Shown here one piece after another: positions 13,457 to 64,000 of a DNA stretch of 64,000 nucleotides (position 1 is the stretch's first letter; the number at the start of each line of letters is the position of its first letter). The notes under the pieces are model-generated. The model saw nothing but the letters and a program-made list of their open reading frames with translations. It was not told the origin of the DNA and ran no database searches. This DNA comes from Auanema rhodensis. Lineage: Eukaryota > Animalia > Nematoda. The stretch is from positions 4,836,001 to 4,900,000 of the forward strand of contig OZ059895.1 in NCBI GenBank assembly GCA_964057225.1, read 5' to 3'. The position numbers and the translations under genes are program-made.

Positions 13457-13651
13457 AGAATTTTTTTACTATAATAAGACGTAAAAAAGAGATTATATTT
13501 ATTCGACTGTTAGCTATATTGTTTACATTGACCTCACATTACAAAAAAAAAAATTTTTTTGAATAGGGTAATAAGACCGTGGGAAAGGCGGGCTTTAAGT
13601 ATTGGCGGGAACCGGGTTCTCAAGTAAATTCTATCAGTAAAACACTTCATA
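13457..13651 (-). repeat. DIRS 3' (right) ITR 13492-13651 plus terminal extension rE 13457-13491
   Basis: 13492-13651 is the reverse complement of 17711-17870 with about 3 differences (CACATT/CACGTT, AGTAAA/AGTCAA, A/T-run boundary). 13457-13491 has no counterpart at the other end. Confidence 0.93.
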
Positions 13652-13837
13652 ATTTCTAAAAAGTTAAAGGGGATACAAAACGATACTGACAGAGAGATCT
13701 TCGGATAAGGATGAGCAGGATCTATCTTCTTGGAACTGGGTTCTTCGAGGGGCGTCGGAATCTAAAGAAAAACGTAATCTAGAGAGCGCGAGGAAGGGAC
13801 TCCGTAGGTGGAGACCAAGGGGTGGAAGGTGGGACTC

Positions 13838-13915
13838 CAGTCGAATAAATATAATCTCTTTTTCACGTCTATTTATAGTAAAAAAATTCTATTATATTTA
13901 TTCGACTGTTAGCTA
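13838..13915. repeat. DIRS internal complementary region (ICR), copy 1
   Basis: 13838-13890 is the reverse complement of the left terminus 13457-13509 (3 mismatches). 13891-13915 is the reverse complement of the right terminus 17846-17870. Together they copy the circle junction. The ICR overlaps the YR stop codon. Confidence 0.93.
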
Positions 13916-14994: not shown

Positions 14995-16541
14995 AGTGGA
15001 GCGATCAGGATGGCCTGTCGTCCTGAGTCTGCCAACTTGTTGATGGTCCTCTTGAGGAGGTGGAAGGGCGGGAAGACGAAGAGAAGTCCTTGCGGCAGCA
15101 GTTTCCAGTTGTGAGAGAAGGCGTCTACGCAGAATGCGTTCTCGTCTAGAAGGAAAGAGCAGTAAAGTGGTGCCTTTGCGTTCCAGGAGGATGCAAAAAG
15201 ATCAAATGTAGGGGTACCGAATCTTTGGAAAATACTCGCAGTCGTCTCCGGATGGAGGGACCAATCTTCGTGAAGGCATCTACCCCTGGAGAGTTGGTCT
15301 GCGATGTGATTCAGTCTGCCGGCGATGTGCGTTGCTCTGACTCGGATATTGCGCTCCCTGCAGAAGTGCCAGAGCTTACGGGCTATTTCCGAACCTCGTT
15401 CTGAGGCCGAGCCACCCCGCCTGTTGATGTAAGTTATCGCCGATGTGTTATCGATTAACAGTAACACGTCAATATTGCACCACTCAGTGCCGAAATGGAC
15501 CAGGGCTTTGAAGGCCGCAATAAGTTCCAACCAGTTTATGTGATAAGCATATTTCTCCTCGATTGACCATTTCCCTGAGATAGTGTTGCCTTCCCATGAT
15601 GCTCCATATCCTTCACCGGAGGCGTCCGATGTAATGGACAGGGATGGAGAGAAGGGTACAAGTGAACTCGGGGAGCCTAGTGTGCAAGATTCTTCTGATA
15701 GGAAGGCACGTAAGGTATCCCGAAGGTCTCCTACAATAGAGACCTGAGCGGGAAGCTCGTTGGGGTCGTTTAGGTTGGGAAAACCTATGTCTCGTAAATC
15801 TCTTTGAGTTTGTCTAACCCAAAAGGAAAAATGTGGGTGTACCACAGTGGCGAAGTTGATTCTCCCGAGGAGGGAGGCCAGTTTCCGGAGTGGGGAGGCC
15901 TGGGATCTGAGAAGGACCGACAGGGAGGTGCTTATAGCCTCCCGTTTCTCTGTTGGCAGGCGCCATTCAAGTGAGCGCGTGTCTATTTCTAAACCTAGAA
16001 AATCGAGCGATTGGGTAGGGCTTAAGATGGATTTAAGCATGTTAATAGAGAAACCCGCGTCACGGAATAGATCTATAGCACGAGACGCATGATCGGCCAC
16101 TCTTGTGGCTGACCTGTCTAGAAAAAGCCAGTCGTCAAGGTAGTTGATTAGGCGAATTCCCTGATCCCTGAGGAGCGCTGCAAGCACCCTCATCAGCTTA
16201 TGAAACACGTATGGGGCTGCGTTTAGGCCGAAAGGAAGGACGCAGAACACGTATGATCTGCCCTCTATATCAAAGCCCAGGTAGGGTTGATGTTCTATTG
16301 CCACAGGGATAGAATGATAGGCCGACTGGAAGTCCACCTTGCATAACCAATCATTGCGTTGCAACACCGATGGGAGGTCCCTAACGGATTCCAGCTTGAA
16401 CCGGGGTGTCTCTATGAAGGTGTTAAGCGTCTTCAAGTTGAGGATAAAGCGGCTGGACCCATCGGACTTGGGTACTAGAAAAGTAGAGAACCGGAAGATC
16501 CTTTCCCCAGGTCTAGCCGGTCTGATTGCCCCCGTCTCCAA
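14829..16541 (-). CDS. pol: DIRS Pol: reverse transcriptase - RNase H - adenine-methyltransferase-like domain
   Basis: RT motifs LPFGL and YLDD. RNase H motifs SDAS, LELIA, IDN and ADQLSR. C-terminal DLFAS...DAF...W...FPPF domain. The listed start is TTG. The frame is open from 16820 and includes the DIRS-like N-terminal AGAL...W...GYRLPF segment. Confidence 0.95.
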   Translation of the reverse strand: METGAIRPARPGERIFRFSTFLVPKSDGSSRFILNLKTLNTFIETPRFKLESVRDLPSVLQRNDWLCKVDFQSAYHSIPVAIEHQPYLGFDIEGRSYVFCVLPFGLNAAPYVFHKLMRVLAALLRDQGIRLINYLDDWLFLDRSATRVADHASRAIDLFRDAGFSINMLKSILSPTQSLDFLGLEIDTRSLEWRLPTEKREAISTSLSVLLRSQASPLRKLASLLGRINFATVVHPHFSFWVRQTQRDLRDIGFPNLNDPNELPAQVSIVGDLRDTLRAFLSEESCTLGSPSSLVPFSPSLSITSDASGEGYGASWEGNTISGKWSIEEKYAYHINWLELIAAFKALVHFGTEWCNIDVLLLIDNTSAITYINRRGGSASERGSEIARKLWHFCRERNIRVRATHIAGRLNHIADQLSRGRCLHEDWSLHPETTASIFQRFGTPTFDLFASSWNAKAPLYCSFLLDENAFCVDAFSHNWKLLPQGLLFVFPPFHLLKRTINKLADSGRQAILIAPLWKSQIWFPLLSQLVQEPPMSLHHPSLLQDKKGNSHPLLGTRNFFLAAWRISPPT

Positions 16542-16726
16542 AAGCTCCGCAAGGAGAGGGTTAGCCGGAAGGGATTGCGGTAACGATGTCAGATTTGACA
16601 GAAGGCGCTTAGGTTTACTCCCTGCGAAAGGGAGGCGGTAGCCTTTTACCGTCTGAAGGATATCCTGGTCTTTAGAGAGGGAACCCCAAAAGTCTAGGTG
16701 GGACGAAAGAGCACCTGCTATAGGAG

Positions 16727-17680
16727 TTAGCCTTGTGGATGGGTCGTGTTGATGGTCCCGATCGTTGGTTCGATGACGGTCTTGGACGTTGATGATCTCG
16801 GGAACTTGGTTCTTGAGTTTCTAGAGAGTTCAGAGAAAGCCGAGATTTCTGCCCTTAGCTTCTTTCCGAAGAGTTCCGGGACTGAGTCCTGAGAATAAAG
16901 ATTAATAGACGTTGGTCGCTTATGGCATCCTACCTCCTGAGAGTTGTCGAGAGACATGGTAGAACCGTAGAGCGGGGCCCTTTTGTAGCTAGGCATAGCC
17001 TTGATGGGCTGAGAGTACTTCATTTTAAGAAGTGCGATCTCTCTGAGGTGAGTATAATCCGTCTTGATATTGGCGCTGAGGAATCTTTCTGTCACGTTGA
17101 TGTATGCCTGTTGTTTGGAGGAAAGTGGAGACTTGTTATCGATCTTCGCAAGTTTCCTGATGATCCGTAGGCCGGCGAGCGCATTGAGCGTGTTCTCGTA
17201 AGAGGCCCTGATGTCAGCCTCGCTGATCTTCACTGATGGCTTGACTGAGCTGTCCACGTGGGTGGTGTATTTCTCATCCAGGCATGGTAGACGGGCGAAT
17301 GGAGAATCGAGTATTGGGAGCTCAGATAAGATGTCGGCTCTTTCAGTGTGCGTCATGGAGCAACCGGAGGCAAGACGCTCGAAGTCGGCAAGTTCGGAAC
17401 CGGAGAGGCGGACTACAGGCCTGGTTCTAGGTCCTTGAGATTCTGGTGGCATGGGCACGAAGTCGTCCTCGTCCGAGGAGTCATGTCGAACTTGATCGAG
17501 TTCTTCATGGGAGTTTTCCGAGTGATCGCCTTGGGTTGAGTCCGTAGGTGTGAGACGGCCATCGCGTCGTGAAGATTCCAAAGAGCCGTCTGATGAGATC
17601 GAGACGGATGAGCGGCCTCTTTTCGGGGCAGGCTCATGATCAGGGGCTTGTCCCTTCTTGGTAGTGCGAGCAGGGGCCAT
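16727..17680 (-). CDS. gag: Putative Gag-like ORF1 of the DIRS element (317 aa from first ATG, MAPARTT...)
   Basis: First ORF after the 5' ITR, with a basic/Ser-rich then acidic N-terminus. Assigned by position only. The C-terminus differs from copy 2 because of a 5-bp indel. Confidence 0.72.
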   Translation of the reverse strand: MAPARTTKKGQAPDHEPAPKRGRSSVSISSDGSLESSRRDGRLTPTDSTQGDHSENSHEELDQVRHDSSDEDDFVPMPPESQGPRTRPVVRLSGSELADFERLASGCSMTHTERADILSELPILDSPFARLPCLDEKYTTHVDSSVKPSVKISEADIRASYENTLNALAGLRIIRKLAKIDNKSPLSSKQQAYINVTERFLSANIKTDYTHLREIALLKMKYSQPIKAMPSYKRAPLYGSTMSLDNSQEVGCHKRPTSINLYSQDSVPELFGKKLRAEISAFSELSRNSRTKFPRSSTSKTVIEPTIGTINTTHPQG

Positions 17681-17710
17681 AGCGACCAACCGTGAGGCTC
17701 GAAACAAAAA

Positions 17711-17870
17711 TATGAAGTGTTTTACTGATAGAATTGACTTGAGAACCCGGTTCCCGCCAATACTTAAAGCCCGCCTTTCCCACGGTCTTATTACCCTATT
17801 CAAAAAAAATTTTTTTTTTGTAACGTGAGGTCAATGTAAACAATATAGCTAACAGTCGAATAAATATAAT
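17711..17870 (-). repeat. DIRS 5' (left) ITR
   Basis: Inverted copy of 13492-13651. Ends ...CGAATAAATATAAT, joined directly to satellite GATGCATTAG. Confidence 0.93.
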
Positions 17871-48800: not shown

Positions 48801-49531
48801 CAAAAATTAGTTATGATCGTTTGAAAAATGATGCATTAGTGTATGTTGAGTTTCCATGTACACTCAACATTGCTTCCAAAAACATTTTGACAAAAATTTT
48901 TTCGAAAAATTTCAAAATAATTTAGCAAAAAGTAGATGTTTTTAGATTCCTTTTTTCAAGGCAAAGACGATGGACAATGTTATTCAACGAAAAAATTAAT
49001 TCTTCAGGGTGAAAATCGAGGTTATAAGTGTGAACTTATATCAGTTGATATCTCGGTGCATTTTCAAGCTAGCGCAAATCTGATAACACAGATCGACGCA
49101 GCTTAAAAATCCGCATCGAATGCACTATACTTCATTGAGAAACGCTTAATACAAAAATTAGTTATGATCGTTTGAAAAATGATGCATTAGTGTATGTTGA
49201 GTTTCCATGTACACTCAACATTGCTTCCAAAAACATTTTGACAAAAATTTTTTCGAAAAATTTCAAAATAATTTAGCAAAAAGTAGATGTTTTTAGATTC
49301 CTTTTTTCAAGGCAAAGACGATGGACAATGTTATTCAACGAAAAAATTAATTCTTCAGGGTGAAAATCGAGGATATAAGTGTGAACTTATATCAGTTGAT
49401 ATCTCGGTGCATTTTTAAGCTAGCGCAAATCTGATAACACAGATCGACGCAGCTTAAAAATCCGCATCGAATGCACTATACTACATTGAGAAACGCTTAA
49501 TACAAAAATTAGTTATGATCGTTTGAAAAAT

Positions 49532-49725
49532 AGAATTTTTTTACTATAATAAGACGTAAAAAAGAGATTATATTTATTCGACTGTTAGCTATATTGTTTA
49601 CATTGACCTCACGTTACAAAAAAAAAATTTTTTTGAATAGGGTAATAAGACCGTGGGAAAGGCGGGCTTTAAGTATTGGCGGGAACCGGGTTCTCAAGTA
49701 AATTCTATCAGTAAAACACTTCATA
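49532..49725 (-). repeat. DIRS copy 2 3' ITR (49567-49725) plus extension (49532-49566)
   Basis: Matches 13457-13651 apart from one SNP and a 1-bp homopolymer difference. Confidence 0.92.
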
Positions 49726-49911
49726 ATTTCTAAAAAGTTAAAGGGGATACAAAACGATACTGACAGAGAGATCTTCGGATAAGGATGAGCAGGATCTATC
49801 TTCTTGGAACTGGGTTCTTCGAGGGGCGTCGGAATCTAAAGAAAAACGTAATCTAGAGAGCGCGAGGAAGGGACTCCGTAGGTGGAGACCAAGGGGTGGA
49901 AGGTGGGACTC

Positions 49912-49989
49912 CAGTCGAATAAATATAATCTCTTTTTTACGTCTTATTATAGTAAAAAAATTCTATTATATTTATTCGACTGTTAGCTA
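49912..49989. repeat. DIRS copy 2 ICR
   Basis: Perfect reverse complement of its own terminus 49532-49584, followed by the complement of the 5' ITR tip. Confidence 0.92.
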
Positions 49990-50832
49990 GTTAAAGAAAA
50001 TAAGGAGTCCTGGAAAGAGCGTCTCTTGCAATAGTGTTTGAAGAAGGTGCTTTCCGAGGCCCAGTTAGCTGCGTCTAAGATAGTTTTGACAGGCAGTCCA
50101 TTCTTAAAAGCTTTGGACGTAGCGGCAGCACGTACTGAGTGAGCTTTGAATTTTGTGGGGATTCCCGCTTCTTCTAGGCAAGTTCTAATCCAACCCGCTA
50201 CCGTAGTTGCGACTACTGGTTCTCCTCTGTTAATGCTAACTAGAAGGTTTCGCGATCGACGAGTATGCATGGTAGCCGTCAGGTAGGCATTTATGCAATC
50301 AATGGGGCAGACAAGAGGGCGTTCTGAATGGCTTTCGAAACAAGCTTCGCGGGGAGGGCCCTTGCCCCTATTCTTGTTCCTGAATTCGATGAAGAAGGTG
50401 ACCCCTCGTGTGTCAAAGCATTGTAGTTACGGAATAGTGTTCAGCGAGAAGGCAGAGAGCCGCCCTTGCTGTAGCAGCTGAGGAAAAACCGTTGTTCTCT
50501 GCTCGATGGGCTAAGAAATTGGCAACAGTTTTTGCATTGGGGATGAACTCGATCTGGGATAGCTTGCAATAATTCTCCCAAGCTTTGTAAGCCGTGTTAT
50601 ATTGTTTTCGGGTACCAGGAGCGAAAGCGTTTACCAATAGTAGTTTGGTCTGGTCCGATATTCCTTCTATGTTGGCGGTGAAATCCTCCACGCCGCCAGG
50701 AAAAAATTTCTTGTCCCCAGGAGGGGGTGAGAGTTGCCTTTCTTGTCTTGGAGAAGGCTGGGATGATGGAGGCTCATTGGGGGTTCCTGGACTAGTTGGG
50801 ACAGAAGGGGAAACCAGATCTGGCTTTTCCAA
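49983..50832 (-). pseudogene. Tyrosine recombinase pseudogene (internal deletion, frameshift)
   Basis: Copy-1 bases 14346-14586 (241 bp, including the catalytic Arg motif) are replaced by ATTGT at 50420-50424. The ORF is split into 50413-50832 and 49983-50270. Confidence 0.93.
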
Positions 50833-52379
50833 AGTGGAGCGATCAGGATGGCCTGTCGTCCTGAGTCTGCCAACTTGTTGATGGTCCTCTTGAGGAGGTG
50901 GAAGGGCGGGAAGACGAAGAGAAGTCCTTGCGGCAGCAGTTTCCAGTTGTGAGAGAAGGCGTCTACGCAGAATGCGTTCTCGTCTAGAAGGAAAGAGCAG
51001 TAAAGTGGTGCCTTTGCGTTCCAGGAGGATGCAAAAAGATCAAATGTAGGGGTACCGAATCTTTGGAAAATACTCGCAGTCGTCTCCGGATGGAGGGACC
51101 AATCTTCGTGAAGGCATCTACCCCTGGAGAGTTGGTCTGCGATGTGATTCAGTCTGCCGGCGATGTGCGTTGCTCTGACTCGGATATTGCGCTCCCTGCA
51201 GAAGTGCCAGAGCTTACGGGCTATTTCCGAACCTCGTTCTGAGGCCGAGCCACCCCGCCTGTTGATGTAAGTTATCGCCGATGTGTTATCGATTAACAGT
51301 AACACGTCAATATTGCACCACTCAGTGCCGAAATGGACCAGGGCTTTGAAGGCCGCAATAAGTTCCAACCAGTTTATGTGATAAGCATATTTCTCCTCGA
51401 TTGACCATTTCCCTGAGATAGTGTTGCCTTCCCATGATGCTCCATATCCTTCACCGGAGGCGTCCGATGTAATGGACAGGGATGGAGAGAAGGGTACAAG
51501 TGAACTCGGGGAGCCTAGTGTGCAAGATTCTTCTGATAGGAAGGCACGTAAGGTATCCCGAAGGTCTCCTACAATAGAGACCTGAGCGGAGAGCTCGTTG
51601 GGGTCGTTTAGGTTGGGAAAACCTATGTCTCGTAAATCTCTTTGAGTTTGTCTAACCCAAAAGGAAAAATGTGGGTGTACCACAGTGGCGAAGTTGATTC
51701 TCCCGAGGAGGGAGGCCAGTTTCCGGAGTGGGGAGGCCTGGGATCTGAGAAGGACCGACAGGGAGGTGCTTATAGCCTCCCGTTTCTCTGTTGGCAGGCG
51801 CCATTCAAGTGAGCGCGTGTCTATTTCTAAACCTAGAAAATCGAGCGATTGGGTAGGGCTTAAGATGGATTTAAGCATGTTAATAGAGAAACCCGCGTCA
51901 CGGAATAGATCTATAGCACGAGACGCATGATCGGCCACTCTTGTGGCTGACCTGTCTAGAAAAAGCCAGTCGTCAAGGTAGTTGATTAGGCGAATTCCCT
52001 GATCCCTGAGGAGCGCTGCAAGCACCCTCATCAGCTTATGAAACACGTATGGGGCTGCGTTTAGGCCGAAAGGAAGGACGCAGAACACGTATGATCTGCC
52101 CTCTATATCAAAGCCCAGGTAGGGTTGATGTTCTATTGCCACAGGGATAGAATGATAGGCCGACTGGAAGTCCACCTTGCATAACCAATCATTGCGTTGC
52201 AACACCGATGGGAGGTCCCTAACGGATTCCAGCTTGAACCGGGGTGTCTCTATGAAGGTGTTAAGCGTCTTCAAGTTGAGGATAAAGCGGCTGGACCCAT
52301 CGGACTTGGGTACTAGAAAAGTAGAGAACCGGAAGATCCTTTCCCCAGGTCTAGCCGGTCTGATTGCCCCCGTCTCCAA
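50667..52379 (-). CDS. pol: DIRS Pol (RT-RNase H-MT), copy 2, intact
   Basis: 570 aa, same as copy 1 except one visible P>S change (NELPA/NELSA). YLDD and RNase H motifs are intact. Confidence 0.93.
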   Translation of the reverse strand: METGAIRPARPGERIFRFSTFLVPKSDGSSRFILNLKTLNTFIETPRFKLESVRDLPSVLQRNDWLCKVDFQSAYHSIPVAIEHQPYLGFDIEGRSYVFCVLPFGLNAAPYVFHKLMRVLAALLRDQGIRLINYLDDWLFLDRSATRVADHASRAIDLFRDAGFSINMLKSILSPTQSLDFLGLEIDTRSLEWRLPTEKREAISTSLSVLLRSQASPLRKLASLLGRINFATVVHPHFSFWVRQTQRDLRDIGFPNLNDPNELSAQVSIVGDLRDTLRAFLSEESCTLGSPSSLVPFSPSLSITSDASGEGYGASWEGNTISGKWSIEEKYAYHINWLELIAAFKALVHFGTEWCNIDVLLLIDNTSAITYINRRGGSASERGSEIARKLWHFCRERNIRVRATHIAGRLNHIADQLSRGRCLHEDWSLHPETTASIFQRFGTPTFDLFASSWNAKAPLYCSFLLDENAFCVDAFSHNWKLLPQGLLFVFPPFHLLKRTINKLADSGRQAILIAPLWKSQIWFPLLSQLVQEPPMSLHHPSLLQDKKGNSHPLLGTRNFFLAAWRISPPT

Positions 52380-52509
52380 AAGCTCCGCAAGGAGAGGGTT
52401 AGCCGGAAGGGATTGCGGTAACGATGTCAGATTTGACAGAAGGCGCTTAGGTTTACTCCCTGCGAAAGGGAGGCGGTAGCCTTTTACCGTCTGAAGGATA
52501 TCCTGGTCT

Positions 52510-52976
52510 TTAGAGAGGGAACCCCAAAAGTCTAGGTGGGACGAAAGAGCACCTGCTATAGGAGTTAGCCTTGTGGATGGGTCGTGTTGATGGTCCAGAT
52601 CGATGGTTCGATGACGGTCTTGGACGTTGATGATCTCGGGAACTTGAATTGGTTCTTGAGTTTCTAGAGAGTTCAGAGAAAGCCGAGATTTCTGCCCTTA
52701 GCTTCTTTCCGAAGAGTTCCGGGACTGAGTCCTGAGAATAAAGATTAATAGACGTTGGTCGCTTATGGCATCCTACCTCCTGAGAGTTGTCGAGAGACAT
52801 GGTAGAACCGTAGAGCGGGGCCCTTTTGTAGCTAGGCATAGCCTTGATGGGCTGAGAGTACTTCATTTTAAGAAGTGCGATCTCTCTGAGGTGAGTATAA
52901 TCCGTCTTGATATTGGCGCTGAGGAATCTTTCTGTCACGTTGATGTATGCCTGTTGTTTGGAGGAAAGTGGAGACT
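52510..52976 (-). pseudogene. gag: 3' fragment of DIRS gag-like ORF, disrupted by LTR element insertion
   Basis: Matches copy 1 gag from SPLSSKQQ onward. An extra 5 bp near 52647 gives a different R/S-rich tail. Confidence 0.75.
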
Positions 52977-53321
52977 TGTCGTTCCGTTATGCTCTCACGT
53001 CGATCCTATAGACCAATAAAGCCTACAAGATGAGTGTGATAGTATTCCAGATGTAGCGGTAGATAAAGAGCATAATGGATAAACATAAGACTCGAGAAAG
53101 AAAGGTTTATTATGTCTACATGATTACAATAAGTTATATAAGTCTACATAAAGATATAAAGTGAAAGAGAGCTAAGAAAGGAAGACCAACCATCCATAGT
53201 CATTCCATAAGGCGAAGCTGAAGTCTGTGTTCCATATGAAGGGCGTGTCGTCCTCTCTCAGCCTCATGTCGTCTGATGCTAACCCGCCTGCTACGTATTG
53301 ATTTCCGAATGGAACGTGCCA
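52977..53321 (-). repeat. Putative 3' LTR (~345 bp)
   Basis: TGTCGTTCC...GGAACGTGCCA imperfect terminal IR. Minus-strand AATAAA at 53106-53111, TATA-like sequence at ~53134-53160, and a short minus-strand purine tract (GAAAAAA) adjoining 53322. The inner boundary is uncertain without the partner LTR. Confidence 0.6.
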
Positions 53322-54013
53322 TTTTTTCGAGTTTATGTCGCGTCCTCGCGAATAGCAAAGTATGTGGCTTGTTTCAATCGTAGCAGAAGGTTTAGTTTTA
53401 AAAAATAAAAATTACAATGTTAACATAAAAATAGTAAAGATAAATTACAATATAATGTTAAACAATATTATCTGAAAAGAATTTAATAAAAATTATTTGA
53501 AAATACATGAATATTAAGGAATAAAACAATCTTTTAGAATACCAGGGCTATATTTTGTCAGCGAGAGTGCGCAAAATAGCTTTTTAGGCACGACGCTGCA
53601 TGTCTAACTTGTTTGAGTATAGAGAAACGAGAGTCATGCTATATTATCGATGGAGCTAGCATGTTTCTTCAGCGTATTCAAAGCGAATTGTAATAATAAA
53701 AAAAAAATTAACTAAATCCCATATAATTTCCGGAATTGAATCATTAACTACTTGATAAGGACTGTTGCTCAGATGAATATGCAATATAATGTCTCTTATC
53801 TTTCATTTCTTCTTTATTTACGGGAAATTATTTGAAATTGATGAAGTTTTATAATCATATATGCTTTGAAACTGAAATGCTTTTTGATTATTAGCTTACA
53901 TCTCGTCTTACTCAAGTTTTTCAATGATATAATAATATGAATAGCTCTGGTTTTTTAAAAGAGAGTTGATACAAGGTTTTACAATAATTTTATCAATCTC
54001 GAAATTATTTCTT

Positions 54014-57000
54014 TCATCGTCTTCTTCTTGGTGGTAGCCAATTTTGGTCCGATGGGTCTTCTGGTTCTGTTTCTTCAGTAGAGTCATAGTTATCGTTACC
54101 ATTTATGACTTTTATGATCTCAATATCGCTGTCGTCGTCCGTGTCATAAGTCGTTGTATTGGATCGCGTGTTTTGAGCGATTGTATGGTCCATTTTGCGT
54201 TCAAAAAGTTTGAGATTGTCTTTGTGTACGTCGTGAATTTTTCCAAATGGATTCTTGAGTTGTACCATGTTTCCTTGAACGTTGATGACTTCAAATGGTC
54301 CATCATATGATTTGCGAAGCTTTTGACCTGGTTTATGCGCTTTAATTGCTAACATAACTTGGTCTCCTTTTCGGATATCTCTTTCTTCTATTCGTTGTCG
54401 TCCATCATGTTTTCTCTTCGCGGTTTCTTGATGTTTTGCAAGATTTTCTTGAATGATGGTTCTTCTTTCTCCTCTGATATATTCGGTATTCTCAATTTCT
54501 TCCAAGATCTCTGGTTGTAATGTCTCGGGGAATAATTCTTTGTCTAATCTCATACGACTTTCTTTTCCGAATAATGCTATGTATGGAGAGATTCCTGTGG
54601 TTGCGTGTGTTATTGTATTTAACGCAAAAGTAATTTTTGGTAAATACATGTCCCAATCAGTTACGTCTTCGTTCAAATAGTGTGTTAATCCTTCTTCTAG
54701 CGTTCTGTGTAGTCTTTCGACTTGTCCATTAGAGTTTTTCTGATGTGGGAGTGTTGGCTCGTGTTTAATGCCAAGTTTTTCACACATTTCTTCAAATTTC
54801 TTTGATACAAAATTAGATCCACGATCGGTTATTAAACGATTTGGTGGTCCAAAAATATATACGAAATTCCTGAGGAATCTATCAATGATGACATCGGTGA
54901 CAATTGTTGGTATAGCGATGGTTGTCGCCCATTTGGAGAATGAATCTTGTATTGTTAGGACATAATTGTTGTTTCTTTTTGAAGTAGGGAATGGTCCCAT
55001 AATATCCATATGTATTCTCTCAAATGGTTTTGATGGTATTTCAAATTGACCCATAGGCTGAACGGTCATAGCGTGAGGATCTTTCTTCCTTTGTGCGCAT
55101 TTAACGCATTGTTTCACAAAAATTGCTATGTCCGTTTGCATATTTGTCCAGCAAAATCTTCGTAGTATGGCTTCTTTAGTTTTGTTAATTCCTTGATGTG
55201 CTCCAATTGCTGGGTCTTCGTGAAATTCTTCGATAACCTTGTTGATAAGTTCGCTTTCCCTTGGTAAAATCAAAGCTGGGTGTGGTCGTTTTCTGCTTGG
55301 TTTTGTGTATAACATGTTGTCAATAACACAATAACGATCATTAGAAAGCATGTTCTTTTTCGCTCTGTATTCTATTTCGGCGATAGTTCTCTTTATCCAA
55401 GGTGTATCCTCTTGAATTGCTCTAATGTCAGGTACATTAACGAAATTAATTTGAGCTTTCGGAATTTCTTTTGTTTTCTTTTTCTTTTCCGGTTTAGGAT
55501 CGTTTGCTTCATCTCCAATGTATCGTGAGAGAGCATCACAGACTTTGTTTAGTCTGCCTTCTCGGTATCTTATCTCGATATCGTATTCCTGTATGACTAA
55601 TTGAAATTTTGCTAGTCTTCCAAAAAGGTCTCTACGAGTCAATAAGCTTGTTAATGGTCGATGGTCTGTGATACAGATTGTATGTGATCCAAGTATATAT
55701 GTTCGAAACTGAGCTAAAGCGTATACGAGTCCTAACGCTTCTATTTCAATAGGAGCATAGTTGCGCTCCGCTTTTACAAGTTTACGGCTTGCAAATGCAA
55801 TTGGATGTAAATTTTTGAGTGGTTCATTGGGATCTTCAGGTTGTAATAACACTGCTCCCACTGCGATATTACTACCGTCACTTTCTATAATGAACATACG
55901 GTCTGATCTTGGTGGTTTTAAGACCGGTGCTTGGATCAATTTTCTTTTTAGTGTATCAACAGCTTGTTGACTTTTGTCATTCCATTGAAATTCCACATCA
56001 AGTTTTGTAAGGTCGTATAAAGGGCTTGCGATGTGTGCAAAATCCTTTATAAATTTCCGAAAGAATCCTACCATTCCCAAAAATGCTCTTACTCCTGTAG
56101 GTGACTTTGGAGCAGGATAGTCTTGAATGGCGGAGACTTTCTGTGGATCTGGTTTGACCCCATCTCTTCCGACAATTAAACCAAGAAATTTTACTTCAGG
56201 TCTTGCAAAAGCGCATTTCTTGAGTTTAATTTTCATGCCTAATTTCTTTACTTCTCTGAGAATCTCAGCTATATCGTCAAGATGTTGTTCTGCAGTGTCT
56301 GATATAACAAGTAAATCATCCAAATAAACAAAGAGTCGGCATTTACATCGGCTTTGAAGGTATCGTACTGCTGTTTGAAAGGTATGTGGCGCTCCACATA
56401 ACCCCATAGGCATCCTTCTATATTGATAAGTACCGGTGTTTGTTGTAAATGCTGTTAATGGTCGATCTGATTTCTTTAATGCTATTTGGAAGAATCCGGA
56501 TACTAAATCAAAGTTAGAAAAATATTGTGATCCGGCTGCCATATCGACAATGTCAGAGATGTTAGGTATGATGTACGTTTGCTTGCGAGTGACGTTATTT
56601 AGAGCACGGAAATCGGTTACGAAACGGAATGTTTCATCTTTCTTTTTGACTAAAACTACAGGACTATTGAAAAGAGATGTGGATGGTTCAATTATATTTT
56701 GCTTCAGCATCTCCTGTACCTGTCTTTCGACTTCTTCTTGTTTGCCTATGGGGATACGCGTTATACGCGGTCTAGGCATGTCCATATCTGTTCTTAGAGG
56801 TATTGAATGCTCTACAGGTCCTTTAAATAGTCCTATTTGTTTATCCTCATTTAAAAATGCATCTCTATTACGTAGAATACAAAGCTGAAGAAGATCTTTT
56901 TGTTCTTTAGTTAGGTCGGCATCTTTTAAATCAAGATCGTTCATAAAGTCCTGAGGAAAATGAGGTAATTTATTTTCCCAATCCGCTTCGGGTGGTATAT

Positions 57001-57730
57001 AGTCTGGATTGTGTTCGGTCGTAAAGATCTCGTATTGTGGCAGTACGCCTATTTTTGCTTTGTCAATAATGTTTCCGGGTGATAGATCTATAGGATGATC
57101 AGTGTTGTTTTTGAATGTCATGGTAATTGAATTGACGTCTCGAAATGCTGTTTCGTAGGTGGTAGATATCGTCTTTTCTTCATCGGGTTGTAGCATGGCG
57201 ACTTCGTTGTGTGATATGGGTTCAGCTAACCTTACTGGTATTCTACAGGTCTGATGAGGAAAGATACATTGTGGATTTAAGTTTATCAAATTAATGACAA
57301 ATGATGTTTTTCTAATATTCCCGTTATTTCCATTGGCTAACGGTACTACGCGGTTTCCGATTTCTAACGTTTGTTTGAATGGTCGAAGTTTCATACCGAT
57401 ATTTTGACGATCGAGTGTTTTCATAAAATCTAATCCAATTAATGCTGGTGATGGACAGTCTTCATCTCTTGATATGAAGAATGTATGATCTATTTCATAT
57501 CCAGCAATTTCTACGGTTAAATCAATTGTTCCAAGAAATCGAAATGCCGATCCGTTTGCTGTCGTTGCAACTGATTTATCCTTTTTTACAAAATCATTCA
57601 AAGTTAAGTAATGTAATGTCGAAAGTCTGATATAACTAATCGATGATCCTGAATCCCAAAGAGTTAGGATTAGTCTATCGTTAACAGTCATCAATAGCAG
57701 TGGTAGAGATTGGTCTTTGCGATTGGAAAC
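54014..57730 (-). other. pol: Pol portion of polyprotein (PR DSG 57647-57655; RT YLDD 56315-56326; IN ~54200-55440)
   Basis: All catalytic motifs are present and in frame. Confidence 0.93.
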
Positions 57731-60700
57731 TGAACAAACTATGGGCATAGCTAGTGGAACTAAAGTGAGAAACGATGGATAGTACTGTTTCATTATGTTC
57801 CTTGGTATTGGCTGATCAGGTTGACTTACTAGCTCTAATGTTTCTTCATATGTGGGAAGATCGTTGGTTTGATCTCGGAGTTCGATATGCATGACTTGCA
57901 TGCCTATTGGTTTGAAGAAATATATTTTCGCAACAAAGGCTAGTACGATCAGTATAACTACAATAATTGTAATTGCTCCAATAGTGATGAGTGTTCGTTC
58001 AATTGTTCCTGCTATTGTCTCGACAAATGAATTCCATGTACTTTTGGTGAATTCATTGGCTTTGGAGATGTAATCACTACTTTTCTTCAATATGCTGAAT
58101 GCTGATGATATTTTTGGATCATGATGAATTGTGTGAAGCACGTGATTTTGACGAATCGATGCTAAACTAGCACCATAAGCAATGGCTGTTGTCATTGAGT
58201 ACACTCGAGATGATAAGTTGGTGTATAAGTGTGCTCCGGTGAATTTTAATGGCGTGATCTTTTCATGATGAAGTCCGTCCCACATGGATATAAGACTGAC
58301 GTCTACAGTACCATTAATTCCTTTCCATTCACCGTCTGTTGACCATACGTCTGTTGGTACGTGATCACAGTTAATTTCTTTACCATGAGGTAATAGGTCT
58401 TTCGATCCTGGTGCGGCAAACAGTAATTGTCCTTCTTGTGTTAATACTGGGGTTTCGAGATAACATGTGCCATTCACAGTGTGATTGTGATATATAGTCT
58501 TTTGTAATACTACCGGGCAAACATGTATATGTAATATCTCGCTGCCTACAAATCTTGCGGCTATATCTTCTCTTCCCAGTATTGTACGCATAGCTATTGT
58601 TGGTTCGATTTGTAAAATTGATCTCCATAATTCAAGATACCTATTTTGGATCTCACATATTGATTCGTATGACTCTTTAAAATGTTTCTGCAGTTCTTCT
58701 TGAATCATAGTTGTAGCATATTGCAAATGATCTTGTGCAATTCTGCTTGTTATGTTTTGGCGAAACTGTTGTTCAGAGTCAACTTTTGTGGCAATGTATT
58801 GAGCATTAGCCTGTACAGACTCTATATCGGTGGCTGTAGGCGTTGATGATGCTCTATGTTTACGAATCAAAGATATTGGTGTATATGTAGTTTCTTCCAT
58901 TATTGGAATTTGTTGATCTTGATGAACAGCGTAGAGAATAGTAGTTGGCGGCGCGCGGGTCGATATTGTTGCGCGCGCGGTTGTCGTTGCGGTTGTATGG
59001 CGCGCCGTTGTTTCGGGCTGGGCCATCGATGAAGGCGCGCGCGCGGTAGTTGCTGCGGCTGCCCGAGGGCTTGTAGATGTTTGCGGCAGTATTGCGGGAT
59101 CTGTTGTGATCAGCGCCTCACGATCGATTATAGGGAGGGCTGCCATCTCGGCCGCGCCGCCTGCCGCGTTGCTTGGCGCACGCGTCGTGGTTTGCAACGA
59201 TTTAAGTTGGATTTTCTCTGTCATTAATCTTTTTAACTGTTCTGATGATATTCTACTAGATGTATTAGGCAAAATATTATCGTTTAGTAGTGGTAAAAAT
59301 ATTTCCAATAATAAGTCCTTAGAGATGTTGTTGGGCTCTATGAGCTTGGGATGTGGTCCAATTGGTATTCCAAAATTATTCTTGATGTCATAGAACAATT
59401 TATCAGTATCAAGTACAAACATTCGTGAAGATGGAAGGTTTATAAATTTTATGTCATCAATATCAGCTGCTGTTTTATTTCTTCTAAGCGTAACGAGAGT
59501 TTTTAGCTCATGTACAAGGTCAATTGTATCTTTTATAAATTTGCTGTTTCTTTCTTCTTGATCAGTTAATAATTGTTTCCTTATTGGTGGCATTTTTACG
59601 AATGCTTTCAATATTTCTTGTCTTGATGGAACTGTTAATTTGTCTTCAATTATAACTGGTGTATTGGCTAAATCAAGAGCAATAGTTTCAGCACGCTCTC
59701 GATAAGTGCCTTCTTTTGTACGAATTAACCGATCAAATTCAATAACGGTCAAACGATCTGATATTTGTTGAAGAAGTTGCCTGGATGTTAAATAAGATAT
59801 TCCAGCTTTAGTAGCTAAAGCTAATTCTCTTTGAGCAACATATTGTAAAATGGCTTCGTCTTTATCACGGAAATCATATTGCTTGAGAAAATGTCTCAAA
59901 GATTTCTCATAAATTTGAATTTTAAAGAAAAATTCAAAATTTTCACGATGGGCTATTATCCATTCTTTCAAGGAATATGTAGGGTCTACCATACGTCTTC
60001 CTTTAATTAGAGGAATAATTTGTGTAATTCCTGGATTACTCATAAGTGGTCTTAAAAATGGATATGGGCAAATTCGAAGCGTGTACGTTTCAAAATCTTC
60101 AACTTCATTTATTCTATCCTGATCGAATGGGAATGAGCATTTTGTAGAAGTTGCGCGTTTAGGTCTTTTGAACGGCAATTTCTTAAATTCTCGTTCAATT
60201 AGGAGTGTGATGTTGTTATCATTAGGATATTTGGGGAATGTTATATAATTTCCTGATGTTGTATGGAATGCTGGTTGTCTAAAGCAGGATGCAATTGGTT
60301 TTGGTGTTATTTTACTCGAAAGGATAAGCGCTGATTGTGTACTTGGAATCAGAATAGTTTCTTTGCTTATTATAGCATCGTAGTAATGCATATCGATATA
60401 ATTACAACGGGAATCCGATGTTTGGGGATCCCATATAATTATTGATGTATTTGATTTGCAATTACCATGATGAGCACTACAACCTTCAGTGTTTAGTATT
60501 AAATTGGATAATATTGTATCATCGGGCATGCGGGTCATGACTCCGCGCTCTAGTACTAAACGCGGCCGCTCCTCGCACTCGTCGCGGCTAAACGCGCGCG
60601 CCGGATCATAGGAGGGCTCTGGGGTTGCTTGTGCTATACTATCGATTCTCTCCAGCTCCATGTTATTCCATTTTCGATCGCGAATCGCCTGCCTGCACTC

Positions 60701-62698
60701 GTGCGCCGCTATAGGCTGCACCCTATCGATTGTTCTGTTTGTGTCGCGGAGGAATAACAAATCGCGTACACACAGCTTGTGTACTTCCTTCGAGCAGCGC
60801 CACGCGTCCCACTCGTGTGCCGTGTGGTTTCGCGTGTATAGATGGATTTGTGTACGTAGCACATGATTTGTTTCTGTTAATTTACATTTCTTTACTACTG
60901 GTGGAACTAATAAGGCTCCTCCAGTTGCTTTTGTGCAAATTTGATATGAAGTTACACATGGCAGGAAAATTGCTACTGTGATTGCCATTACAACCGTTAG
61001 TGATAACGGTGAAAGGGTCACAGAGTTAATTCGTGGTGTGCTTCTATCTCGTCCTCTTGATTGATCTCTTTGATTGTTAAAATGGACTCTTCTTTGTCCG
61101 TTATGTTCATTAGTCCTTCCTCTTCTACTATTGTTTGAAGGATTAAAATTGTTTGAATGCCAGTTGTTATTAAATCGTCCCGAATTTCGGTCATAATTAT
61201 TGTTACGGCGATAATTAGCAAAAGAGCCGTTACGATTTTGGTTGTTATTATATTTTGAAAAGTTTTTATTTTTCTGATAATTTTGATAATTATGATAATT
61301 TTTATTGTTTTGGTTATCACGTGGATAATTATGGTCGAAATTTCGGTTATCTCGTCTCTCGTTTGTGCGCGCGAAAGGAGCTAGTGCTTTGTTTACAGCA
61401 TTGACTAGCATGGACTGCGTGTCTGTTGTCTGGTTCATTATCGATTCTTCCCAGCGAGCGGCCTCAATCGCATCCGTGAAGGATTTTGGCTTCGCTCGAA
61501 TCACAGCTGGTTTCAGAGTATTTTTCAGTCCTCTGAGAAAAGTTGATCTTAATATGTGATCTTTGTGAGGGTCATCCGTGGCAAAAGCGCTTAGTGCAAT
61601 CGTTCTCAGTGATTGAGCGTAAGCGTCAATTGTCAGATCACCTTGGGTTGTATTTTGGAGATTGATCAGCGCTGGATCCTGATTATATTCAGGACAAAGC
61701 TTAGATGTTAAAGCTCTTAACAGGTCATTCCATGAACCGGTGGTTTTTAATTGTTCAGGTACTTGCCTGTACGCTTCTTCCGCTGCTTCGTTTTTAAGAA
61801 GCAAAGGTAGAAGGGCTAATCTCTCCGGGATTACCAGACCTACAGCGTTGGCAAATAGGTTGAATTTAGCCGTGAAATCTCGAAAGTTGCGACTGCCATC
61901 ATAAGTTGGGCAGTAGGGTGATAACAAGGCTTGCGCTATGGTAGTTTTCCCTGCCCCAGGTAAAGAAGGTTCAGTTGCCATATTACTTGTACGGGCAGAT
62001 GGCATTTTTATCACTCTGCCTGTTGTTAATGAGTTCTCAGACACAGGGGTTGTGTGTACTGAGCGGCTGGGTCGGTTTGGTGTTTTTGAACTTCCTGTTG
62101 TTGTATTTGGTAAAATTGGGGTTGAAGTTTGGTTATCAGTAATAGCAAGATGTGTATGTTCGGGTGGTTGTATGGGAGATAAATTAATGTTTGGAACCGA
62201 CGAGTATCTGTTCGTGTGGCTGGTGTTCAAGTTTCGATCTTTTGGTGAACGATTGAAGAGATCAGAAACTATGTTTTTAAAAGTTTGTAAACCGCCTGCA
62301 CTAGTAGTGGCTACTGAAGGTGAAACTGTTGGTTCAGGGATCGACAGAGAGAGAGATGCGTCCGATTTGCTTGAGTTTTTATTTTTATTTTTCTTATTTT
62401 TATTTGAATTAGAGGAGCGTACCTTTTTAGCAGTAACTGGTGTTTGTTCTTCCACTATGATGGATGTTTCTTCTCCTCCTGGTGGTACGTAATCCTCGTC
62501 GCTTAATCGTTCAGTAGGTGAATAAGTGCCTGCACGAGGAGTAAAGAATTTGTCGGTTTTGTGCTCGGCTTTCTGCTCGTCTTCGATTATAGCGATGCTT
62601 TGTGCGCGAGCTCGGCTACGGGTGAGTGGAGCTGAGTCTCGCAGATCAAAATCAGTTCGTGTACTGAGAGGTACAGCTGATCGGAATCGCTTATCCAC
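54014..62698 (-). CDS. Gag-Env-Pol polyprotein (2894 aa): CA-like Gag, Env glycoprotein, aspartic protease, RT, RNase H, integrase
   Basis: Gag CA-like motifs PTYDG..F..F, QGDLTIDAY and FLRGL. Signal-like segment, Cys-rich ectodomain and TM. PR WDSGS and IGLDF; RT MPMGL and YLDD; RH SDGS, EALG, TDH, DALSR; IN HHCC, D-D-E and GPF. The listed start is GTG, the frame is open from 62761, and the first ATG is at 62005. Confidence 0.96.
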   Translation of the reverse strand: MDKRFRSAVPLSTRTDFDLRDSAPLTRSRARAQSIAIIEDEQKAEHKTDKFFTPRAGTYSPTERLSDEDYVPPGGEETSIIVEEQTPVTAKKVRSSNSNKNKKNKNKNSSKSDASLSLSIPEPTVSPSVATTSAGGLQTFKNIVSDLFNRSPKDRNLNTSHTNRYSSVPNINLSPIQPPEHTHLAITDNQTSTPILPNTTTGSSKTPNRPSRSVHTTPVSENSLTTGRVIKMPSARTSNMATEPSLPGAGKTTIAQALLSPYCPTYDGSRNFRDFTAKFNLFANAVGLVIPERLALLPLLLKNEAAEEAYRQVPEQLKTTGSWNDLLRALTSKLCPEYNQDPALINLQNTTQGDLTIDAYAQSLRTIALSAFATDDPHKDHILRSTFLRGLKNTLKPAVIRAKPKSFTDAIEAARWEESIMNQTTDTQSMLVNAVNKALAPFARTNERRDNRNFDHNYPRDNQNNKNYHNYQNYQKNKNFSKYNNNQNRNGSFANYRRNNNYDRNSGRFNNNWHSNNFNPSNNSRRGRTNEHNGQRRVHFNNQRDQSRGRDRSTPRINSVTLSPLSLTVVMAITVAIFLPCVTSYQICTKATGGALLVPPVVKKCKLTETNHVLRTQIHLYTRNHTAHEWDAWRCSKEVHKLCVRDLLFLRDTNRTIDRVQPIAAHECRQAIRDRKWNNMELERIDSIAQATPEPSYDPARAFSRDECEERPRLVLERGVMTRMPDDTILSNLILNTEGCSAHHGNCKSNTSIIIWDPQTSDSRCNYIDMHYYDAIISKETILIPSTQSALILSSKITPKPIASCFRQPAFHTTSGNYITFPKYPNDNNITLLIEREFKKLPFKRPKRATSTKCSFPFDQDRINEVEDFETYTLRICPYPFLRPLMSNPGITQIIPLIKGRRMVDPTYSLKEWIIAHRENFEFFFKIQIYEKSLRHFLKQYDFRDKDEAILQYVAQRELALATKAGISYLTSRQLLQQISDRLTVIEFDRLIRTKEGTYRERAETIALDLANTPVIIEDKLTVPSRQEILKAFVKMPPIRKQLLTDQEERNSKFIKDTIDLVHELKTLVTLRRNKTAADIDDIKFINLPSSRMFVLDTDKLFYDIKNNFGIPIGPHPKLIEPNNISKDLLLEIFLPLLNDNILPNTSSRISSEQLKRLMTEKIQLKSLQTTTRAPSNAAGGAAEMAALPIIDREALITTDPAILPQTSTSPRAAAATTARAPSSMAQPETTARHTTATTTARATISTRAPPTTILYAVHQDQQIPIMEETTYTPISLIRKHRASSTPTATDIESVQANAQYIATKVDSEQQFRQNITSRIAQDHLQYATTMIQEELQKHFKESYESICEIQNRYLELWRSILQIEPTIAMRTILGREDIAARFVGSEILHIHVCPVVLQKTIYHNHTVNGTCYLETPVLTQEGQLLFAAPGSKDLLPHGKEINCDHVPTDVWSTDGEWKGINGTVDVSLISMWDGLHHEKITPLKFTGAHLYTNLSSRVYSMTTAIAYGASLASIRQNHVLHTIHHDPKISSAFSILKKSSDYISKANEFTKSTWNSFVETIAGTIERTLITIGAITIIVVILIVLAFVAKIYFFKPIGMQVMHIELRDQTNDLPTYEETLELVSQPDQPIPRNIMKQYYPSFLTLVPLAMPIVCSVSNRKDQSLPLLLMTVNDRLILTLWDSGSSISYIRLSTLHYLTLNDFVKKDKSVATTANGSAFRFLGTIDLTVEIAGYEIDHTFFISRDEDCPSPALIGLDFMKTLDRQNIGMKLRPFKQTLEIGNRVVPLANGNNGNIRKTSFVINLINLNPQCIFPHQTCRIPVRLAEPISHNEVAMLQPDEEKTISTTYETAFRDVNSITMTFKNNTDHPIDLSPGNIIDKAKIGVLPQYEIFTTEHNPDYIPPEADWENKLPHFPQDFMNDLDLKDADLTKEQKDLLQLCILRNRDAFLNEDKQIGLFKGPVEHSIPLRTDMDMPRPRITRIPIGKQEEVERQVQEMLKQNIIEPSTSLFNSPVVLVKKKDETFRFVTDFRALNNVTRKQTYIIPNISDIVDMAAGSQYFSNFDLVSGFFQIALKKSDRPLTAFTTNTGTYQYRRMPMGLCGAPHTFQTAVRYLQSRCKCRLFVYLDDLLVISDTAEQHLDDIAEILREVKKLGMKIKLKKCAFARPEVKFLGLIVGRDGVKPDPQKVSAIQDYPAPKSPTGVRAFLGMVGFFRKFIKDFAHIASPLYDLTKLDVEFQWNDKSQQAVDTLKRKLIQAPVLKPPRSDRMFIIESDGSNIAVGAVLLQPEDPNEPLKNLHPIAFASRKLVKAERNYAPIEIEALGLVYALAQFRTYILGSHTICITDHRPLTSLLTRRDLFGRLAKFQLVIQEYDIEIRYREGRLNKVCDALSRYIGDEANDPKPEKKKKTKEIPKAQINFVNVPDIRAIQEDTPWIKRTIAEIEYRAKKNMLSNDRYCVIDNMLYTKPSRKRPHPALILPRESELINKVIEEFHEDPAIGAHQGINKTKEAILRRFCWTNMQTDIAIFVKQCVKCAQRKKDPHAMTVQPMGQFEIPSKPFERIHMDIMGPFPTSKRNNNYVLTIQDSFSKWATTIAIPTIVTDVIIDRFLRNFVYIFGPPNRLITDRGSNFVSKKFEEMCEKLGIKHEPTLPHQKNSNGQVERLHRTLEEGLTHYLNEDVTDWDMYLPKITFALNTITHATTGISPYIALFGKESRMRLDKELFPETLQPEILEEIENTEYIRGERRTIIQENLAKHQETAKRKHDGRQRIEERDIRKGDQVMLAIKAHKPGQKLRKSYDGPFEVINVQGNMVQLKNPFGKIHDVHKDNLKLFERKMDHTIAQNTRSNTTTYDTDDDSDIEIIKVINGNDNYDSTEETEPEDPSDQNWLPPRRRR
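57900..61030 (-). other. env: Env portion of polyprotein: class III (gB-like) fusion glycoprotein candidate
   Basis: Internal signal peptide 60947-61030, paired Cys residues, several NxS/T sequons, RPKR at 60155-60166, the segment LQY...C..Q...LW.....P......LGR.DIAARFVG.......C...CY, and a TM at ~57930-57994. Confidence 0.8.
61031..62698 (-). other. gag: Gag portion of polyprotein
   Basis: S/T/P-rich leader, CA-like domain at ~61440-61915, and an N/R-rich basic tail with no CCHC knuckle. Confidence 0.82.
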
Positions 62699-64000
62699 TT
62701 TGGTAGCGCTCTTGGTTTGGAAAAACCTTGAGTGTTTAGTAACGTGGGGGATTTTGAGACGTTAATGAGTGTTATGGATAAGGAGTTTTGGAAAAGGGGT
62801 GAGAAAGCTGTGAGTAACTGGTTTGTATAGTCGGCGTTAAGGAATGAATCTAAGTTGTGGCCTTTAACAGAGATCCGCCTACTACCGTATGAAAATTTGG
62901 ACTTTGTTCGCTCTCCAATTTAATATTCTTAAATGTATATAATTCAACCAGTTTGTATATGTTCAAAAATGTTCAGTGCTCACTTGATTGATGCCTGAGC
63001 AATCTCATTAGTCCTTATTCCCATTTTTTTTTTCTTTTTCTGACAATTCTGATCTTCTTGGACTCACGAGTGATCGAAAATGCCACGAAAATGGACTTTG
63101 GTAAATGTTCAAAGGATTTTAGCGGTTTTCATAATGTACATCCGTAATAGCATTACTCTTTTAAGGAAGCAATTTGGAAAACGAATGAGTACCGTAGTCC
63201 CATCATGATCAGAAATCTAGTTTTAAAATTATGGTTAGGAATAGATGACTAAAGATTACAATAACTATATTTAAAGAATTATGGTGTTTAGGAATGAGTC
63301 TTATGCTTCAAAACAACAATAACGGTATGAGGAAGGTGACATATAGTAAGGGGAGAAAATCCAAACTGATATGCTTAAGCCAACACGACCTGATAGACAA
63401 TCACTAATAATAATTCAGTTCGTAAAATTGTACAGGATTTTTCGGACTATAGCGATCTTAAAATTCACTTTTCATAATATTCCTCCCATTTAGGTAAGGT
63501 TTCCCGTGTAAATTCAATGCGTTATCAAAATATTTTTGGATGTTAATGGCAAAAAGTTGTCTGAACAGAAATGTAACGCAAAATAAAATAGTCCTGATCG
63601 CAAAATATGAAATAATCTCAATTTGGTGCGCAAAATTGTTTCATCCACAAAAATAAAGAAATAACCGTGGCTATTCTTTCCTCGAAGCCAAAATCAATCC
63701 TTAAAAGGAGAAAGTGTGGGCATAAATCTCAATAAAAATTATCCTTGGGTGAATTTGTTCACTAATTCATCCTAGGGTCCTCAAAAATGCTTCGAGTTCG
63801 GGTAACAGAGTATTCGATGTTAACAGCAAGGTTATAAAAATTGTTGGGTTCAGACAGACAGAAAATTGTGAACAAACGGGAAAATATAACTTCAGTTTCA
63901 AAAAATATAAAATATCCATCTCCAAAAGGAGTGGTCCTTGCATCTGTTCCCTTTTAAACGTTGTTGGCCCCACCGTATTGTGTTAAGACATGGAGTAGAT

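Follow-up and report, generated by a model that had tools for sequence, protein, structure and literature searches.

The window analyzed here is a 64,000-nt stretch of the genome of the nematode Auanema rhodensis (contig OZ059895.1, positions 4,836,001 to 4,900,000), and its subject is a retroelement in which an envelope gene lies in frame between gag and pol. We consider with good confidence that this is a young multi-copy Ty3/gypsy long terminal repeat (LTR) element of the published GAG-ENV-POL group, whose envelope is of the glycoprotein B (gB) type, and that it is likely expressed as one membrane-threaded polyprotein, which would be cleaved to give a cytosolic Gag, a luminal class III fusogen and a cytosolic Pol. 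The demonstrated parts of this reading are the domain order in one frame, the predicted gB-like fold, the flanking hydrophobic segments and their conservation; we infer the rest.

The headline architecture, described in an earlier note on this DNA, is already in print, GAG-ENV-POL elements with gB-type env having been published (PMC13524379), and the element is a further member of that group. Apparently new here are the spliced-type mini-copies present as DNA, the probable CG..CG ends of the LTR, and a helical Env insert with no Pfam or viral-fold match.

Open frame and envelope glycoprotein

The open reading frame (ORF) occupies positions 54014..62761 of the minus strand, on which all features of the element given below are located. 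It contains 2,915 codons from stop to stop, in line with the earlier claim of a frame of more than 2,900 codons, whereas the plus strand across the same interval has many stops. At the base composition of the ORF, the chance of an equally long open frame is about 3e-83. The length of the frame was confirmed, and a product of 2,915 aa was not: the AUG-started product would have 2,663 or 2,655 aa. According to the Pfam analysis of the ORF, the order of domains is capsid, fusion glycoprotein, protease (PR), reverse transcriptase (RT), RNase H (RH) and integrase (IN). Together with two hydropathy peaks, this reproduces the order Gag, signal, ectodomain, transmembrane segment (TM), PR, RT, RH, IN proposed earlier.

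The aspartyl protease (57419..57691, aa 1691–1781) was identified by Pfam and by the DSG motif at aa 1703, and the RT (56174..56650, aa 2038–2196) by Pfam and the YLDD motif at aa 2146. Pfam also located the RNase H (55583..55984, aa 2260–2393) and the integrase zinc finger with the catalytic core (54692..55255, aa 2503–2673); a GPF motif at aa 2821 is C-terminal of this core. The PR-RT-RNase H-IN order and the catalytic motifs are those of Ty3/gypsy elements (Metaviridae). None of the 13 Pfam families matched is Pao-specific, and env lies 5' of the protease, unlike in the BEL/Pao elements Atlas and Anakin, which have env 3' of the integrase and a Pao-type pol.

The first Met of the ORF is codon 253. 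Ahead of it, 252 Met-less codons (62006..62761) are open beyond chance: none of 20,000 shuffles was open, and 9 and 20 stops interrupt the two remaining frames. This part is S/T/P-rich with basic patches and shows no Pfam match, and its translation is uncertain. Judging by sequence, M253 or M261 is the probable start of translation; M261 precedes the capsid match by 19 aa, and the last Met does so by 13–22 aa in 8 of 17 homologues. Gag (61013..62005, aa 253–583) comprises a capsid (PF03732, E 2.2e-7; Retrotrans_gag/Ty3_capsid at aa 320–448) and an N/R-rich tail. No CCHC fingers were found in Gag, its Cys residues being those at 284 and 356 only, and a GKT-containing stretch ahead of the capsid gave only insignificant AAA matches.

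The middle segment, read earlier as a glycoprotein, is by its Pfam match and predicted structure a gB-type class III fusogen, with a gB-like fold modeled in both lobes. As in the published group, hydropathy places the ectodomain between a signal-like segment and a TM. The internal signal-peptide-like segment (60947..61009, aa 585–605; hydropathy 2.29, peak at aa 586–604) directly follows an INSV motif resembling a protease site, and a similar hydrophobic segment, judged by eye, precedes env in 17 of the 18 homologues spanning the region. The Env N-lobe (60182..60946, aa 606–860) is predicted to be beta-rich and similar to gB domains I/II (predicted local distance difference test, pLDDT, mostly 80–98), and its model aligns with herpesvirus gB from model residue 1.

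Downstream of the N-lobe lies a furin-like site, RPKR (60155..60166, aa 866–869), and R-x-K-R is present in all four homologues spanning it. It is followed by a lineage-specific alpha-helical insert of approximately 300 residues (59267..60154, about aa 870–1165), modeled with a pLDDT of 73 and a predicted template modeling score (pTM) of 0.75, and by a disordered linker (58835..59266, about aa 1166–1309; pLDDT <50) whose S/T/P/A-rich composition is mucin-like. The helical insert is common to six homologues. It matched no Pfam family and no viral fold in BFVD at E<=0.001; in the ESM Atlas the best score, with DUF8422 clusters (34–54% of members) and low recognition, was 0.87, which is under the 0.9 threshold. 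The whole insert between the lobes, including the helical domain, has 486 aa and is among the longest (median 54 among 91 matches).

The Env C-lobe (57992..58834, aa 1310–1590) is modeled as a long central helix, a crown and a C-terminal arm. Pfam indicated Monjiviricetes_fusion at aa 1346–1607 with 48.2 bits (cut-off 27), and Glycoprotein_B at aa 1343–1426 with E 2.5e-8, a match that did not reach its cut-off. The N-lobe, central helix and crown fold, as well as a furin-like site in the linker, are shared with herpesvirus gB and with the G proteins of Monjiviricetes (rhabdo-, nyami- and chu-like), from which this Env differs in its large insert, its retroelement polyprotein context and its sequence (10–16% identity). 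The ectodomain had been called Cys-rich; its 12 Cys in 985 aa do form two clusters around the insert of ~480 aa, and it is not Cys-rich throughout.

The Env transmembrane anchor (57932..57988, aa 1592–1610) has a hydropathy of 3.18, and a hydrophobic peak was found at this place in all 21 homologues examined. A second, Pro-rich and weakly hydrophobic segment (57725..57775, hydropathy 1.84) is located just ahead of the protease; it is clear in 9 close homologues (1.4–2.3) and absent or marginal in the other 12. An (L/P)PxY late-domain-like motif in the Env tail was rejected as a family trait, since it occurs here and in Auanema and in none of 20 other homologue tails.

In the proposed mechanism, translation would begin at M253/M261, and the internal signal at aa 585–605 would direct Env into the endoplasmic reticulum, where signal peptidase would cut before Y606. 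The TM at aa 1592–1610 would then halt transfer, leaving PR-RT-RH-IN back in the cytosol; the cytosol/lumen/cytosol topology suggested earlier agrees with the hydropathy profile. The protease of the element would cut V/I-N-x-V/I-like motifs at aa 455, 580, 1677, 1825 and 2440, releasing Gag from the signal and separating Pol from the Env tail. A V/I-N-x-V/I-like consensus serves as a protease cleavage motif, and such motifs stand here at domain borders, including just ahead of the signal, with similar ones after the TM in many homologues. Furin would cut at RPKR, ahead of the helical accessory domain and the mucin-like linker. Gag, Env and Pol would thus be produced 1:1:1 at one membrane and be co-located for budding.

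Relatives and place among known elements

At least half of the element's sequence words were found in 11 of 15 runs from 4 studies, one of which may be the source of the window. Single contigs of run X1 cross both env junctions, gag-signal-env (60783–61696) and env-TM-protease (56958–58670); the latter is also crossed by a contig of X4. Contig depth over env resembles that over pol. Among 40 of 112 differences, 32 fall in the ORF; synonymous changes account for 26 of them and for 8 of the 9 located in env and the TM. In addition, 165 database proteins longer than 1,200 aa, which are gene predictions with some redundancy, were screened for the env lobes. The lobes were matched in 62 of them: env precedes pol in one chain in 38 and follows it in 6; in the remaining 18, nothing matched RT, RNase H or integrase. 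By env, the closest relative is a protein of Auanema that shares the junctions and is 46–51% identical. Env is a constant part of the element family and not an accident.

An RT-RNase H tree was constructed for 89 of 130 rows, 10 more having been dropped as short. In this midpoint-rooted tree, which includes no BEL/Pao or retroviral outgroup and no Cer1, the element grouped with Ty3/gypsy elements. It belongs to a highly supported clade of 10 rows (SH-aLRT 99), all with env before pol, in which eight of the nine others are named Caenorhabditis or Diploscapter. This clade is nested in a 22-row clade (support 97), again with env before pol throughout, that includes Ancylostoma and Meloidogyne. 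This placement makes a rhabditid nematode the likely host. As for individual relatives, P0002 of Auanema sp. JU1783 shares the domain order, the junctions and the helical insert, and the Caenorhabditis/Diploscapter proteins P0008, P0011, P0012, P0014 and P0018 share the order and junctions, with an RT 58–65% identical to that of the element. The Caenorhabditis polyproteins differ in their shorter inserts (77–265 aa). All six proteins are unannotated gene models.

According to Chary and Hayashi (eLife 2026, PMC13524379), in the errantiviruses of Nematoda, Bryozoa and Platyhelminthes all env is of the gB type and the order is GAG-ENV-POL; their supplement contains 36 nematode entries, and Sacco et al. 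2022 (J Gen Virol) are credited with the nematode case. The element shares with this group a Ty3/gypsy pol, placed within the nematode env-before-pol clade, and an uninterrupted gB-type env between gag and pol, flanked by a signal and a TM. Further shared traits are the presence of multiple copies, the same Gln-type 12-mer of the primer-binding site (PBS) and an LTR length (337 nt) within the listed range. It differs from the group in its CG..CG LTR ends and intron-less mini-copies. The nematode rows of PMC13524379 give coordinates and not sequences, and the family of the element may be among these 36. The main text of that paper does not contain the terms 'splic', 'polyprotein', 'frameshift' or 'non-autonomous', and expression and processing of the gag-env-pol frame are not discussed in it. 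The window copy offers handles on these questions, namely, a mapped layout of signal, TM and protease sites and a candidate intron whose spliced product has seemingly been amplified as DNA.

Cer1 had been named in the earlier note as having a comparable layout. As described in PMC10309623, it is likewise a nematode Ty3/gypsy element with one long ORF lacking a gag-pol stop, and its spliced RNA joins 5' exons to a 3' exon. However, no env separates gag from pol in Cer1, its extra ORF 3' of pol belongs to the spliced export factor CERV, and its Gag has three CCHC fingers. None of these three traits of Cer1 was found in the element.

Several points weigh against the proposed reading of the element. 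M253 is preceded by 16 upstream ATGs and by the 252 Met-less codons, which the proposed start does not account for. The evidence for Env topology and cleavage consists of hydropathy and motifs, and the Env model is a monomer with a pTM of 0.45 and a high global root-mean-square deviation. The second hydrophobic segment, which is kept in the closest clade, could change the topology of Pol. Finally, some of the predicted database proteins may be spliced models, and the tree is the result of a quick search.

Shortened copies and alternative readings

A class of shortened copies lacks an 8,134-nt segment bounded by GT..AG (54289..62422), whose deletion removes capsid, env and pol together. In runs X12 and X15, the joint skips 8,134 nt; slid by 4 letters with one mismatch, it corresponds to a GT..AG intron with the donor at 62423|62422 and the acceptor at 54289|54288. 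The joined short form is also present in X6, which has a genomic-DNA profile, and in X10; the latter is labelled 'DNA?', is RNA-like (no LTR excess, DIRS depth 2.7) and was not counted as DNA evidence. In X13, one contig of 2,111 nt connects the LTR end with the acceptor side; the 1,677 letters separating them roughly match the expected combined length of leader and first exon. An exact junction with 30-letter contig overlaps predicts contig ends at 54262 and 62452, and these ends were seen, the former in X1 and X6 and the latter in X1 and X4. Depth is higher outside the intron (~990–1,270 against 214–300 in the middle in X1; 1,122 against 586 across the acceptor in X6). With contig depths taken as rough ratios and not as copy numbers, the short form seems no rarer than the full one.

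It is reasonably likely that the short form represents a mini-element of ~3.3 kb that is non-autonomous and arose by retro-copying of a spliced RNA. An RNA without the 8,134-nt GT..AG segment would keep the LTRs, PBS and purine tract, and would probably be copied back to DNA by the enzymes of the full-length element, giving rise to non-autonomous mini-copies. Precedents, called rare, are the spliced proviruses of HERV-H and rem-intron-deleted MMTV (PMC11998498), which are also integrated copies with a deletion matching an intron; those are vertebrate retroviruses, whereas here nearly the whole coding region is removed. In the literature searched on the GAG-ENV-POL gB-type group, nothing was found on spliced mini-copies or CG ends; either topic may be treated in Sacco et al. 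2022 or in the figure supplements of the eLife paper.

Ordinary template-switch or DNA deletions, with a chance fit to GT..AG, would be a less probable but serious source of the short copies. The two sides of the 8,134-nt junction share a 3-nt microhomology, and therefore a template switch could give the same junction. The acceptor is weak, deviating from the nematode consensus at -3 and -4, the directly seen junction is one letter off the exact splice, and one of seven other joints checked also passes the same loose GT..AG test. The family also has other internal deletions with 7–8-nt microhomology. These observations count against an origin by splicing. On the other side, no AG|GTR site other than the donor AAG|GTACG occurs within the first 373 codons, contig breakpoints fall at the exact splice positions at both ends in three DNA-like runs, and the microhomology is shorter than at clear template-switch joints.

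The junction contigs of the runs guessed to be RNA, four in number and including X12 and X15, contain a variant letter and a 36-nt deletion; they may therefore derive from integrated mini-copies, and ongoing splicing is not shown by them. This in-frame deletion (54168–54203, near the ORF end) is present in the junction contigs of X12, X13 and X15 and also in X10 and X4, so that the junction contigs come from a variant lineage and not from the window copy. In X12 and X15, the interior of the element is mostly uncovered, which is not evidence of silence. The donor is located after codon 113, and the downstream exon is in another frame, open for 58 codons; no AUG leads into the spliced product of 113 + 58 codons.

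Two further observations concern shortened forms. The other internal deletions, 54918/60272 and 55280/59352, are of the template-switch type and occur in one run each. A second, diverged short family was found as contigs of 2.7–2.8 kb in X10 and X13 (aligned to 52980–53838); the LTR, the region of the purine tract and a portion of the 3' untranslated region (UTR) are common to it and the element, whereas its interior differs, and it is likely another non-autonomous passenger.

As regards Env, it is unlikely that the protein is unused for infection, with mobility of the element being intracellular only and the gB-like protein kept for membrane anchoring, cell-cell or organelle fusion, receptor blocking or frame-keeping. 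Env-borne transmission is unproven for nearly all such elements (PMC13524379), and a frameshift or stop in env would abolish pol; therefore, the open frame alone is no proof of Env function. However, the env differences are mostly synonymous (the 8 of 9 given above), and the signal, TM, cysteines and furin-like site are kept in divergent homologues beyond the needs of frame-keeping. Should Env be fusogenic, the family would offer a means of spreading from cell to cell or horizontally in nematodes. A more far-reaching reading is improbable. It would make the element an infectious single-polyprotein nematode retrovirus whose integrase works on CG ends and whose furin-released helical domain of unmatched fold serves attachment; the 8.1-kb intron would yield a short RNA spreading as a satellite-like mini-element and encoding a non-AUG-started regulatory protein (113 gag-frame and 58 second-frame codons), comparable to CERV of Cer1.

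Splicing of env from some transcripts, proposed earlier as a source of Gag-Pol, would spare Gag-Pol the membrane passage and leave the single frame mainly for Env; we regard this as quite improbable. Equimolar Pol is unusual for LTR elements, and the element seems to own a working donor at 62423|62422. In addition, Cer1 uses splicing (PMC10309623). Against this, the whole ORF contains no TTTYCAG acceptor, no strong acceptor was found ahead of the protease, and the sole phase-matched weak pair around env (aa 374 to aa 1602) would cut the capsid and end in the TM. Among the joints listed for 7 runs none removes env only, a weak negative because contigs drop rare forms. A misassembly, or a viral glycoprotein gene inserted just once, can practically be dismissed: the window, mostly satellite with nested elements, is an error-prone context, but both env junctions are crossed in independent runs, other copies and relatives carry env, and homologous junctions occur in many nematode proteins.

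Termini, insertion site and surroundings

The long 5' leader (62762..64000) extends 109 nt beyond the edge of the window, where it reaches the PBS and 5' LTR. Contigs link position 64000 through 109 letters to the LTR end at 52980, so that the 5' LTR lies just outside the window, which itself contains the 3' LTR only; the 5' LTR and PBS are thus known from contigs of other runs and the 3' LTR from the window. The PBS abuts the 3' end of the LTR and fits a tRNA ending GTGGAACCTCCA; its 12-mer is identical to the Gln-type listed for Clat_errantivirus_4 and Ctro_errantivirus_1 (PMC13524379 supplement). At the opposite end, the 3' UTR (53317..54013) contains no ORF of more than 48 codons and ends in an A-rich purine tract. 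The element therefore has the termini of a Ty3/gypsy element, with an LTR at both ends, a PBS after the 5' LTR and a purine tract before the 3' LTR.

The 3' LTR (52980..53316, 337 nt) was delimited by loose ends and a depth peak and has 6-bp terminal inverted repeats, 5'-CGTTCC...GGAACG-3'. Its tips map to CG..CG and not to the canonical TG..CA. For the U5 end the support is good, coming from the PBS that abuts it, several flanks and the empty site in DIRS; the U3 end is based on one flank (seen in X1 and X6) and the inverted repeat; the CG..CG ends are probably real. LTR annotation based on TG..CA would miss them. Some Drosophila gypsy-group elements have AG-started LTR ends. LTR ends other than TG..CA are known but rare, TG..CA being usual and not universal, and the first T was invariable among the plant LTR-end types found (10.1101/137141); a C at the LTR tip would therefore be unusual. 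In the DNA-like run X6, the contig depth of the LTR is about five times that of the 3' UTR (5,688 against ~1,100–1,400). This may point to numerous solo LTRs or additional families, depth not being equal to copy number.

The element interrupts, at 52979|52980, a minus-strand copy of a DIRS (tyrosine-recombinase) retrotransposon (49529..52979), into which empty-site contigs continue. The interrupted copy is 99.4–99.6% identical to a complete copy at 13454–17870, and the insertion is therefore young; this agrees with the earlier proposal of a recent insertion inside a young DIRS copy.

Both DIRS copies (13454–17870 and 49529–52979) contain overlapping gag, RT and tyrosine-recombinase ORFs and have terminal and internal inverted repeats, the second one being without ~241 nt of the recombinase gene. 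They lie inside a 351-bp satellite, so that the gag-env-pol element is nested in DIRS and DIRS in the satellite. The satellite array makes up most of the window (5–49531; TRF: period 351, 139 copies counted across the inserted DIRS, 87% matches), and neighbouring units are mostly 96–99% alike. The left flank within the satellite unit is the same for both DIRS copies, suggestive of either a fixed target site or a block duplication.

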